From Eledone cirrhosa (Eukaryota), in NCBI GenBank assembly GCA_964016885.1, contig OZ024740.1, forward strand, positions 383,718,001-383,782,000: a stretch of 64,000 nt of DNA, written 5' to 3'. A program made the position numbers and the translations under genes. Positions 2,641 through 57,730 of the stretch are shown here, piece after piece. Within the stretch, counting starts at the first letter, position 1, and each line of letters starts with the position of its first letter. The notes under the pieces were generated by a model. That model ran no database searches and was not told the origin of the DNA. It saw nothing but the letters and a program-made list of their open reading frames with translations.

Positions 2641-4031
2641 GTATGTATCTGTGTATGAATCCATCTCAGGCACGATGCACTCCAGTTGAGTAGAAAAAAA
2701 TGACAATTTAGGGACAGAGAACACCAAAGATCACGCAGGCGATTATCATTTAAAAGAAAGCGGGGAATTAAATGTCGGCATTTTTTGAAATATGTTGATT
2801 AAATATCAGATATATAGAACAGATTTTGTACTTGCACACCTAACATCTGACATATTAACGCACACACGTATAATGGATAACTCTAAAGACAATTACAACT
2901 AGATATACAGGGTTCGACATATACACGCATGCATACACATATCCAAGCACATAACTCCATACGAAAAAGCTAAATTATCTCATCTATTGCAGCTTGACAC
3001 AACATTTTCATTACATAATTGACATAAAAACATAAATAACAACATTTAACAGGAATACACAACATTATACAACTCAGTTTAGAGACGTTGAAACTTCCGG
3101 CAGCTATAACTAGACATCCTCTTACATAAAAAGAAAGAAAAATAGGGTGAATCGATAGCGACAAGAATAGCACGAACTGATGCATATAGGTGGTGGCTAT
3201 TTTCTTCCCCCACTTGATATTGAACCCACCCTCGTGGAGTCTGTCAGTCACCATCAAAGGAGACATGACGTCAGAGGTCAACATCAGATAGTCAGACACC
3301 CCCTATGGAAGCCCTTTTTTTCATCACTTCCCTATCTCATGGTAAACGAAGCTTCGTATCTACAACACGTGAATAAAAAGGTTCATGTTGGTTGATAACA
3401 AAGGCAAGGCTTTCGCCATCTTATCTGATTAAATTCATTATTTAATTTGTTTTCTACTTTTATGGAACAAGATTGTATAATTTAATTGGAATTTGTTGAA
3501 TAATGAACAATTGATTAATCGATGGGTTAATTTGAGTAATAGTCGGTGGAAATTCGCATTTTCTAAGAACATTTATGTGTTGTTGGTATTGTGATATTTT
3601 CCTTTACAATTTATAGAATCTTTGACCATTTGACTAGATACTATTCGCCGAATTATATGTTTTTCCATGAAGAACTTAATCAGAGTTGACGGCCAGAGCT
3701 GGTTGCAATTCTCAGAGTCGCAGAACTAGTTACAGGAATGAAAGAATGTATCCTCAAATAGGAGAGCTTTTCTAAATGCTTTTAAAATGGTCATCTCCGC
3801 TAAAGGCAGCAAATCCCCAACTGGTGTTCTTTACCCTCTTTATATATATATATATGTATATATATATATTGTTATACTTTGGGAGGGTCATGTTGCCAAT
3901 AAGAAACACACGCACTAGTTGCTTTCACTTCAATTTATTATATATTTATAAATTTATAAATTTACAAATCTACAAACTTATAAATTTCTGGTTGGTTGGT
4001 TGGTTCCACAACCAGATAGTTGTTTATATAT

Positions 4032-10299: not shown

Positions 10300-10345
10300 T
10301 AGGATAGAAGAAAGGAAAGGCACAGAAACAAAGAAAGGAATCCCC

Positions 10346-10390
10346 AGTCACTGAAGAGGTCACAGAGTGTGTGACGAAAGGACTATGACT
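10346..10390 (+). ncRNA. Minimal type-I hammerhead ribozyme in the PLE 3' pLTR
   Basis: agtca-CTGAAGA-g-gtcaca(gagtg)tgtgac-GAAA-gga-CTA-tgact. Helix I is agtca/tgact, helix II is 6 bp, helix III is vestigial. Confidence 0.85.
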
Positions 10391-10610
10391 ATATATAAAC
10401 AACTATCTGGTTGTGGAACCAACCAACCAACCAGAAATTTATAAGTTTGTAGATTTGTAAATTTACAAATTTATAAATATATAATAAATTGAAGTGAAAG
10501 CAACTGGTGCGTGTGTTTCTTATTGGCAACATGACCCTCTCAAAGTATAACAATAACGGTTTCAACACACGATTTCAGATAAAGAATCTTGCTAAACAAA
10601 TTCAGAAACG

Positions 10611-52838: not shown

Positions 52839-53142
52839 TAAATTGAAACAAAATGAAAACGAAATTTCATTTCTCACTCTTAGTATGGCACTTACTTAAA
52901 TGTAAGTATGCATGTATACGTACATACATATATGTGTACAGACGTACAGTAGCATGCACATATATATATATATATATACATATATATATACATATGCATA
53001 CAGGTACACATACATATATGCACGTATCAGTTTAGCGGCGCTAACGTCGCTTTGTTCGTTTGTAAACAAACTGAACAGCCTGAATTTATGCCATACGGTG
53101 TTAAGGCAACCACGTCACCTTTTTGTTCAACACTGACACAGG

Positions 53143-53187
53143 AACGATGTACTAGTTTCAAGCTTGTTAGCTATCATCAGCACCGTT
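53143..53187 (-). ncRNA. Minimal type-I hammerhead ribozyme
   Basis: aacggtg-CTGATGA-tagc(taacaa)gctt-GAAA-ctag-TA-catcgtt. Confidence 0.88.
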
Positions 53188-53608
53188 TACCCATCTGCCA
53201 GATAGTTGAACGTTCGAAAGTATATACTTTCCTTATGAAAATTAACGGCTGAGCAGCCTAATTTGCATATTGAGTGAGTTAAATCGGTCAGGCATACCGA
53301 AAACGATAAATTGAAACAAAATGAAAACGAAATTTCATTTCTCACTCTTAGTATGGCACTTACTTAAATGTAAGTATGCATGTATACGTACATACATATA
53401 TGTGTACAGACGTACAGTAGCATGCACATATATATATATATATACATATATATATACATATGCATACAGGTACACATACATATATGCACGTATCAGTTTA
53501 GCGGCGCTAACGTCGCTTTGTTCGTTTGTAAACAAACTGAACAGCCTGAATTTATGCCATACGGTGTTAAGGCAACCACGTCACCTTTTTGTTCAACACT
53601 GACACAGG

Positions 53609-53653
53609 AACGATGTACTAGTTTCAAGCTTGTTAGCTATCATCAGCACCGTT
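53609..53653 (-). ncRNA. Minimal type-I hammerhead ribozyme
   Basis: Identical to 53143-53187, 466 nt away. Confidence 0.88.
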
Positions 53654-53806
53654 TACCCATCTGCCGTTTTCATTTTGTTTCAATTTATCGTTTTCGGTAT
53701 GCCTGACCGATTTAACTCACTCAATATGCAAATTAGGCTGCTCAGCCGTTAATTTTCATAAGGAAAGTATATACTTTCGAACGTTCAACTATCTGGCAGA
53801 TGGGTA

Positions 53807-53851
53807 AACGGTGCTGATGATAGCTAACAAGCTTGAAACTAGTACATCGTT
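53807..53851 (+). ncRNA. Minimal type-I hammerhead ribozyme
   Basis: 7-bp helix I aacggtg/catcgtt, CTGATGA 53814-53820, GAAA 53835-53838, palindromic ACTAGT helix III. Predicted cut after A53844. Confidence 0.88.
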
Positions 53852-54092
53852 CCTGTGTCAGTGTTGAACAAAAAGGTGACGTGGTTGCCTTAAAACCGTA
53901 TGGCATAAATTCAGGCTGTTCAGTTTGTTTACAAACGAACAAAGCGACGTTAGCGCCGCTAAACTGATACGTGCATATATGTATGTGTACCTGTATGCAT
54001 ATGTATATATATATGTATATATATATATATATATGTCCATGCTACTGTACGTCTGTACACATATATGTATGTACGTATACATGCATACTTAC

Positions 54093-55893
<1,801 letters not shown>

Positions 55894-55948
55894 GTGAGGT
55901 TTTTTTTACAAAATGAAAAATAACCGAGGTGTCCTACACGAGTGAAAG

Positions 55949-56152
55949 TATAAAGAAAAAGAGATGAAATCGAAAATGCAACTGAAGTCTTATTATTTTT
56001 TTTTTTTTTTTTTAAATATATATATTTATTGGTTCCTTTACCGGTTTCGCACTGCGAAACCGGTAAAGGAACCAAATAAATATATATATTTAAAAGTAGG
56101 AAAAAAAAAAAATAATAAGACTTAAGTTGCATTTTCGATTTCATCTCTTTTT

Positions 56153-56158
<6 letters not shown>
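55949..56158. repeat. Palindrome with ~105-bp arms centred on 56052
   Basis: ...taccggtttcgca c tgcgaaaccggta...; the arms match out to ataaagaaaaagagatg. Confidence 0.9.
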
Positions 56159-56204
<46 letters not shown>

Positions 56205-56229
56205 GTATATATATATATGTATATATATG

Positions 56230-56294
<65 letters not shown>

Positions 56295-56302
56295 GTATAT
56301 AA

Positions 56303-56435
<133 letters not shown>

Positions 56436-56451
56436 AAAATTAGTATATCTA

Positions 56452-57119
56452 CTTATGAAAATTGACTTAATTACTAAAATGTCACTCCAACTAATTAGTT
56501 TCTGTAAGGGGATAAATATGGTTACGGAGCGTATCCACAGAGTGAAAGTTTAGTAAGTAAGTCAATTTTCATAACTTTCTTATTTACGTCTTTCATATAA
56601 TTGTTCTGCATCCCCTTGCATAGAACCACAAAGTTACTAAGACAAAACATATATATTTGCTAACATAGGTATGCATCTGTATACATATGTTGGTAGATAT
56701 ACTAATACTTTATAATTACCTCCAAATTATTTGTTGAGCAAAACTTGCCGAAATTACTACTATGATTAATAGTAGTGGCTAGGCCCTGTCTTAATAGCAC
56801 CCCCACTCCTCACTGATTAACCTCAGTGTCACGTGATTGATTCTTTTGAATTTGCCACTTGACCAAGTAGGCCGTGAATTTTTCAATGTCTTGGAATCTA
56901 GTCCACGCTCGCTTTTTTCCATCCACTGAATTATTTTTATATAAGTTCCCAGTGTCCTCGCATTGCCTGGAAGCTTAGCTGAGAATAGACTCCCTGATGA
57001 CGTAAGGCTTCTCTGTGGATAAGCTCCGTAACCATATTTATCCCCTTACAGAAACTAATTAGTTGGAGTGAAATTTTAGTAAGTAAGTCAATATTCATAA
57101 CTTTCTTATTTACGTCTTT
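56452..57119. mobile_element. HHR element: inverted ~90-bp arm, 526-bp unit and ~54-bp terminal redundancy
   Basis: 56452-56542 is the reverse complement of ~57011-57100; 56541-56593 matches 57067-57119. (TA)n flanks. Confidence 0.87.
56989..57069 (+). ncRNA. Type-I hammerhead ribozyme
   Basis: actcc-CTGATGA-c-gtaagg...ccttac-a-GAAA-ctaattag-TT-ggagt. Helix III palindrome ACTAATTAGT; predicted cut after T57064. Confidence 0.8.
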
Positions 57120-57130
57120 TATATATATAT

Positions 57131-57171
57131 ATTGTTATGCTCTGGGAGGGTCATGTAAACAAATTCAGAAA

Positions 57172-57174
<3 letters not shown>
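57131..57174. mobile_element. 44-bp PLE footprint made of two opposed 3' termini
   Basis: attgttat..tgggagggtcatgt (as at 3868-3893) joined to aaacaaattcagaaacga (as at 10594-10611). Confidence 0.7.
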
Positions 57175-57242
<68 letters not shown>

Positions 57243-57400
57243 GGGATAACAAGTTATCGTTATAGGTAATCCAGTTAGAGGTTGTGAGTACTCTGTGTCG
57301 TGGATAGTTTTAAGCTACGGCTTTGTTTGACTTAACAAGATGTTTCAATGGTTAGGCAGCGAGTTCGCGATAATTCCTATGTAGGTTATACTTGGAGTAA

Positions 57401-57730
57401 TAATAGTGAAAGATTGAAGAGTGACATGGTTGGCTGTACAATAAGGGGCTTTATTTCAGGTATTAACAATTGTTTCATTGATCAGGTGTGTCTAGAGGCT
57501 TCTAATCGCTCGAAGTTGCGTCTCTCGATCTCAAATACATTATTTACCTCTGATCAAATCCTCAGAATACAGGATTTGTTCAGAGGTATTTAATGTATTT
57601 GAGATCGAGTGACGCAACTTCAAGCGATTAGCGGCCTCTAGACTCACCTAATCAACGAAACAATTGTTAATACCTGAAATAAAGCCCCTTGTTTTACTGC
57701 TGACCATGTCACTCTTCAATCTTTCATTAT
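57401..57730. repeat. Diverged palindrome (~160-bp arms, 8-nt loop)
   Basis: aaatcct [cagaatac 57563-57570] aggattt; the arms match out to tgaaagattgaagagtgacatgg. Confidence 0.88.

Follow-up and report, generated by a model that had tools for sequence, protein, structure and literature searches.

Excess of 5' ends beside the predicted hammerhead cut in a non-coding repeat family with Penelope-type insertions

Results

A two-armed copy of a 525-nt unit

The window (the whole stretch of 64,000 nt that was analysed) carries a copy of a 525-nt repeat unit arranged in two head-to-head arms. We number the unit from the predicted ribozyme cut, +1 being the first nucleotide 3' of it. On the left, as read from the sequence, lies a TA-rich target flank, a (TA)n microsatellite (56150-56432, no strand). 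The inverted arm (minus strand) abuts this microsatellite with its outer end, 56433-56452, which was assigned to about +155 to +175 of the unit by comparison with locus L002. Its main part, 56453-56542, corresponds to unit 472-525 and +1 to +36 and includes the 3' half of the ribozyme and the cut site; these 90 nt are 95.6% identical to 57011-57100. The two arms meet head-to-head at 56540-56542 (no strand), a 3-nt microhomology common to both. The plus arm is a near-complete unit without an open reading frame, running from cut+2 to the predicted cut (56540-57064, plus strand). It continues into a second, partial unit, +1 to +61 (57065-57125, plus strand), which ends at the shorter of the family's two fixed 3' ends and is followed by TA dinucleotides.

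The preliminary description of this locus had the copy starting at its own cut site. The plus arm indeed begins near it, and its first base, 56540, recurs at 57066, 526 nt on, but G+1 is missing and the first base is therefore cut+2. Since the first three nucleotides are common to the inverted arm, the boundary lies anywhere from +2 to +5. The repeat of the first ~54 nt that had been noted is present, but it measures 60 nt (56540-56599 versus 57066-57125, 95% identical) and ends at +61. Likewise, the 90-bp inverted arm is joined at the 5' point as reported, but it resumes after an internal deletion of +37 to +154 and runs for ~20 nt more to the other fixed end, at ~56433. None of the contigs of four runs crosses the window junction; such contigs cannot show starts.

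Other repeats lie close by. A separate element sits within the (TA)n at 55890-56160; its long inverted arms lie around 56012-56093. The plus arm is immediately followed by the end of another repeat (57120-57175), which also occurs at 3857, 16232, and 18522. Next comes an element at 57245-57730 that has inverted repeats around 57400-57725.

The hammerhead-like motif

A type I hammerhead-like motif spans 56989-57069 on the plus strand, with its predicted cut at 57064/57065, in agreement with the cut predicted earlier. It consists of stem I (56989-56993/57065-57069), the core CUGAUGA (56994-57000), a C at 57001, stem II (57002-57007/57044-57049), an A at 57050, GAAA (57051-57054), a palindromic stem III (57054-57063), and U as H17 at 57064. 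Thus, CUGANGA, GAAA, and an NUH triplet, here GUU, are all present, and three stems surround the core, stem I being open and stem II long with a covarying inner helix. The G10.1-C11.1 pair that adjoins the core is absent; instead, the C at 57001 stands opposite the A at 57050 before a G-C pair. Rfam returned no hammerhead match at the window motif at E≤10, and folded in isolation the motif does not stand out (z -0.45).

The evidence for the fold is covariation between copies. In 10 chosen copies, from which the structure itself was drawn, pairing was kept in 96.3% of 190 cells, and compensatory changes were found in 4 of 19 pairs, a level reached by 8 of 500 shuffles. Among 88 copies of a wider sample, stem II occurred as five fully paired variants with both sides changed. 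Stem I, core, and stem III were identical at all 31 positions in subfamilies with differences at 68 of 525 positions. The invariant parts together with the covarying stem II indicate that the RNA structure is under selection; self-cleavage itself is a prediction. The C of the C.A combination was found in 86 of the 88 copies, the opposing A being fixed by the search pattern. The preliminary description had named C.A and GUU as features that might leave the hammerhead inactive even in the family consensus; both were checked across the family and are its conserved state, not decay.

Such deviations have counterparts among known hammerheads, as far as the accessible texts go. GUU is described as cleavable, although not among the most effective triplets (PMC9217987). 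Hammerheads of Penelope-like elements (PLEs) typically leave a base unpaired after A9, form dimers through a palindromic stem III, and cleave weakly (PMC4209133). In the axolotl HHR_Amex2, a mismatched base of stem II is tolerated, with weak cleavage of the monomer and better cleavage of the dimer (PMC7229834). Of nine Xenopus retrozyme dimers, one was cleaved in vitro and eight were not (bioRxiv 2026.07.22.740005).

Within the motif, the extra A ahead of GAAA gives rise to a pyrimidine tract followed by CAG (57036-57051), which resembles a splice acceptor and ends on the core G12. GTAAGT donor-like words follow at +15 and +19 (57079-57088). Both kinds of word are kept across subfamilies, and no spliced junction was found among 14 same-strand junctions. 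A small hammerhead-like motif of another family lies at 10345-10391 (plus strand), and the flanks of the fetched loci contain at least ten further hammerhead types.

The repeat family in the genome

In the genome of 3.0 Gb, a 28-mer from the unit had 676 exact and 924 near matches, and the ribozyme motif had 7,697 matches; the controls gave 0 in both cases. We examined 405 loci in all, drawn by sequence queries. The unit is non-coding, with 36% GC and a longest stop-free stretch of 82 codons, and contains neither a reverse transcriptase (RT) nor a GIY-YIG reading frame. Full units form subfamilies 5-13% apart. The largest of these (L340-L405) carries poly-A/T expansions at +22 to +35, giving units of ~555-580 nt. 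A head-to-tail array of ~80 kb lies at G000:C5:84,645,000-84,726,000 (L109-L122, L201, L202, L207, L208), and its adjacent units are 6.7% apart (n=14). A 253-nt contig from another organism (run X4, organism B) contains the ribozyme 3' end followed by unit +2 to +159, with 3 differences and a 6-nt gap, indicating that the family extends beyond this genome.

The structure seen in the window is common in the family. At 211 loci, 347 of 395 unique arm pieces have a fixed 3' end, at +55 to +62 or +167 to +181; 180 end near +61 and 167 near +176. The 146 head-to-head pairs comprise 108 with both kinds of end, 4 with two alike, and 34 with an irregular end, so that 108 of the 112 pairs with two regular ends combine a long and a short arm. 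TA runs adjoin 285 of 325 usable arms. These features correspond to the insertion signature of Penelope elements: a partial tandem, an inverted 5'-truncated copy, an extension at one end only (115 nt), and a bias for microsatellites. Both the inverted arm and the terminal repeat of 60 nt are family-wide and of this generic type, and are therefore uninformative on cleavage.

5' ends relative to the predicted cut

If templates begin at a self-cleaved end, the 5' ends of copies should gather at the cut. For the end statistics, we left out 40 length-selected loci as length-biased, since they covered a query starting at +2; the window copy is one of them. Also omitted were 22 array loci, duplicates, and 70 of the 395 pieces, which had an irregular 3' end, contained a same-strand junction, or lay at a locus edge. 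This left 264 unbiased arms. The cut was crossed at least once by 213 of them and at least twice by 61. Forty-two began at +1 to +20, nine at +1 to +5, and two at +1, while the 5' ends of the other 222 (84%) lay outside +1 to +20. An exact start at the cut therefore does not define full-length copies.

Rates were compared for the 226 stops of arms that reached +27. Stops were 3.0-fold denser at +1 to +20 than in the adjacent upstream stretch from -40 to -1 (42 per 5250 nt versus 24 per 9088 nt, p=7.6e-6), and the 42 compare with 13.9 expected from this background. The excess amounts to ~28 ends, 12% of all. It was 3.2-fold in the discovery set and 2.5-fold in the independent replication, where it was weak (p=0.048). 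In the discovery set, the best 20-nt interval of all 525 starts at -2, and the next best reaches p=0.058. Close to the cut, the step is one-sided, with 23 ends at +1 to +10 against 6 at -10 to -1 (p=0.002) and the upstream side at background; for +1 to +5 against -5 to -1, the counts were 9 and 4 (p=0.15).

The excess was seen in several subsets: among second or later passes (16 versus 3, p=0.005), with one arm per locus (25 versus 9), and where the partner arm was distant from the cut or absent (2.6-fold, p=0.0013). Both arms ended near the cut in 12 of 92 pairs, compared to 6.2 by permutation (p=0.002). A truncated-exponential model allowing for length bias gave 32 of 158 stops against 14.3 expected (p=1e-5); under the assumption of a steep length decay, the excess drops to 1.5-fold (p=0.012). 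With a second alignment method, which counted some overlapping loci twice, the ratio was 2.8. In the wider superfamily (64 loci, 109 passages, 17 anchors dropped), it was 2.0 (p=0.14). These superfamily counts are a second version; the first were discarded after poly-A/T expansions at +22 to +35 had made false stops. Overall, 5' truncation points are non-random with respect to the cut, as would be expected from the preliminary description, but they do not pile up on it: their mode is +7, just 3' of stem I.

The window holds a second hammerhead repeat, at 52840-54080, which is also two-armed and is unrelated to the 525-nt unit. It has a 466-nt unit, a GUA triplet, and U.U at the base of stem II, with motifs at 53144, 53610, and 53808; a 23-mer from it has 12,292 matches in the genome. 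No pile-up was detected at its cut in 121 passages (3 per 2351 nt at +1 to +20 versus 8 per 4476 nt upstream), a result that has P=0.024 under a 3-fold effect. Stops of this family at -121 to -144 were set aside, probably being subfamily indels.

The template RNA and a locus without ribozyme

Next to the ends, sequence variants bear on the template. Private variants were shared within arms, between successive units, in 61 of 33,697 comparisons and between arms in 74 of 35,144, compared to 37 of 403,859 between loci. Rare variants are thus ~20 times commoner between arms and successive units than between loci. The passage over the cut is clean, with 4 indels against 9.5 expected in ~368 passages. 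These observations fit both arms having been copied from one template, either circular or a young multimer. Divergence of units within arms has a median of 3.2%, a value inflated by misalignment, and is not below the 3.5% between loci, so that a circle is not proven. Read-through from the C5 array is not favoured as the main source of templates, given that array neighbours are 6.7% apart and units within arms 3.2%. Fold-back self-priming was ruled out as a general source of the second arm, as the arms end at different fixed sites; their 5' ends are also uncorrelated overall.

One locus carries a junction at the cut itself. L091 (1701-2430; G000:C1:299,080,800-299,081,530) lacks unit 451-525, by which the whole ribozyme is deleted. 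In three instances across the two arms, A450 is fused to precisely +1, with no microhomology. This was the single such locus among 40 scored of 441 candidates, and its junction is one of the 14 distinct same-strand junctions listed, so it counts as one event. Such a junction would be expected from ligation, or from jumping, at a genuine RNA end at +1. L091 is a candidate DNA copy of a ribozyme-less circle.

Discussion

The best reading of the window copy is a non-LTR retrozyme that a Penelope-like enzyme mobilised, a minority of the templates being cleaved and linear. A Penelope-like reverse transcriptase/endonuclease, acting in trans, would nick the (TA)n target. Two reverse transcriptions from the two nicked target strands may then start at +61 and +176 on one RNA. 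Most templates would be circles or uncleaved multimers, on which synthesis mostly stops at random; for about 1 end in 8, the enzyme would reach a ribozyme-made 5' end, on a cleaved multimer or a re-opened circle. The cDNA ends would finally be joined head-to-head by microhomology, with a loss of 0-20 nt.

We consider it slightly better than an even chance that the excess of ends is due to template RNAs beginning at the self-cleaved end, as a minority of all templates. The idea that the template started at a self-cleavage site thereby gains some support from the family, but the large majority of ends lie elsewhere, most arms run through the cut, and the 466-nt family shows no pile-up. The terminal repeat, taken as a sign that the template extended past the next cut, has no bearing on cleavage. 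The preliminary description went further and saw in this single copy evidence of ribozyme activity in vivo. We do not follow it there: only the family-level excess is suggestive, and it has rivals in stalling and in a transcription start. For the window copy itself, 3.2 of the 9 ends at +1 to +5 are expected from the background, leaving 64% as excess, and with the rivals weighed we regard a real cut end as its start as a possibility somewhat short of even.

The rival that survives best is stalling of the RT at the folded, uncleaved ribozyme, at the 3' base of stem I, together with microhomology joining at the self-complementary AAATTT (+7 to +12); cleavage would then have left no trace. Stalling agrees with the mode at +7, two nucleotides 3' of stem I, and with the fact that only 9 of the 42 ends in the zone of excess reach +1 to +5. 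Several junctions have AT-rich inverted microhomology, and an overlap of at least 2 nt occurs at 58 of 128. However, stops were not in excess at any other predicted helix, stem II and one of 16 bp among them, or in AT-rich windows, and the 466-nt family has none at its longer stem I. The excess is also seen in solo arms alone (8 versus 4, p=0.03), and stalling leaves the exact +1 junction of L091 unexplained. We therefore regard it as unlikely, if the most serious of the alternatives.

Ordinary random 5' truncation of the window copy, with the family excess as a residue of sampling and alignment bias, appears improbable. The background share of ends at +1 to +5, sampling by sequence queries instead of the whole family, and the weak replication sets (p=0.048 and p=0.14) speak for it. 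Against it, the excess survives removal of the length-selected loci, de-duplication, restriction to one arm per locus or to second passes, and the second alignment method.

Still less probable is an internal promoter, with transcription starting a few bases from the cut and capped primary transcripts as templates. The window copy has a TATA-like TATTTAT at -30 to -24 and, at -6 to -1, TTAGTT, a putative initiator-like word; GTAAGT at +15 would suit a short first exon. In addition, pLTR promoters are described for PLEs in the accessible texts of PMC3846280 and PMC8557442. However, the largest subfamily among those listed lacks the TATA-like word, TTAGTT is already demanded by stem III and the triplet, -10 to -1 is at background, and a capped end would hardly yield the ligation-like +1 junction of L091.

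A combined reading, in which the genomic copies record hammerhead cleavage in about 1 end in 8 and L091 derives from an RNA circle that lacked the ribozyme and was closed at precisely the cut site, could equally well prove right or wrong. A step in 5'-end density at a predicted cut is a cheap test for any large family. It was positive in the 525-nt family and negative in the 466-nt family, from which we predict that the two differ measurably in cleavage or ligation.

The comparisons that follow draw on the accessible parts of the cited sources. The family resembles metazoan non-LTR retrozymes (PMC7229834; bioRxiv 10.64898/2026.07.22.740005) in its non-coding tandem units with one type I hammerhead each, the palindromic stem III, low GC (36% here), and dispersed copies next to a long array. 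It shares a mismatch at the base of stem II with the axolotl HHR_Amex2 (PMC7229834). Its unit is longer (525 nt versus 150-450 nt; PMC7229834), and the long stem II with inner helix, C.A, and GUU set it apart. As far as accessible, these accounts mention neither insertions with two arms and two fixed 3' ends nor 5' ends in excess at the cut.

With EN+ PLEs, the family has in common partial tandems, an inverted 5'-truncated copy at the 5' end, an extension at one end only, and microsatellite targets (PMC8557442, PMC3846280), as well as a hammerhead with an extra base after A9 (PMC4209133). In vitro, the RT of a PLE was found to start at two internal sites downstream of the ribozyme (PMC11167929), to which the one-sided tail of the present family corresponds. 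Unlike EN+ PLEs, the unit has no open reading frame, its extension is 115 nt instead of 30-40 nt, and an extra A also stands before GAAA. In the anole element, cleavage was dispensable in vitro and no RNA-seq reads ended at the cut (PMC11167929), and the role of the hammerhead in Penelope-type mobilisation is stated as unclear (PMC8557442). In openly accessible texts, without supplements, we found no map of 5' ends against the hammerhead cut for PLEs or retrozymes. If the combined reading of the ends and L091 holds, genome sequence alone would show that hammerheads mobilised by Penelope enzymes cut in the germ line and that cleaved as well as circular RNAs serve as templates, a point that is open in the PLE literature as far as accessible. 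The gain would be modest, because in vivo processing of retrozymes in animals (PMC7229834) and ribozyme-shaped junctions of R2 (PMC3774820) are already known.

R2 elements with HDV-like ribozymes offer the parallel for the ends themselves. According to the accessible text of PMC3774820, their genomic 5' junctions reflect the ribozyme cut, and where cleavage occurs at the end of the element, junctions are variable and of the microhomology type. The ribozyme class and the enzyme are different, and the R2 cut defines the full-length 5' end, whereas in the 525-nt family the excess near the cut comprises only ~12% of ends and the cut is crossed by most arms.
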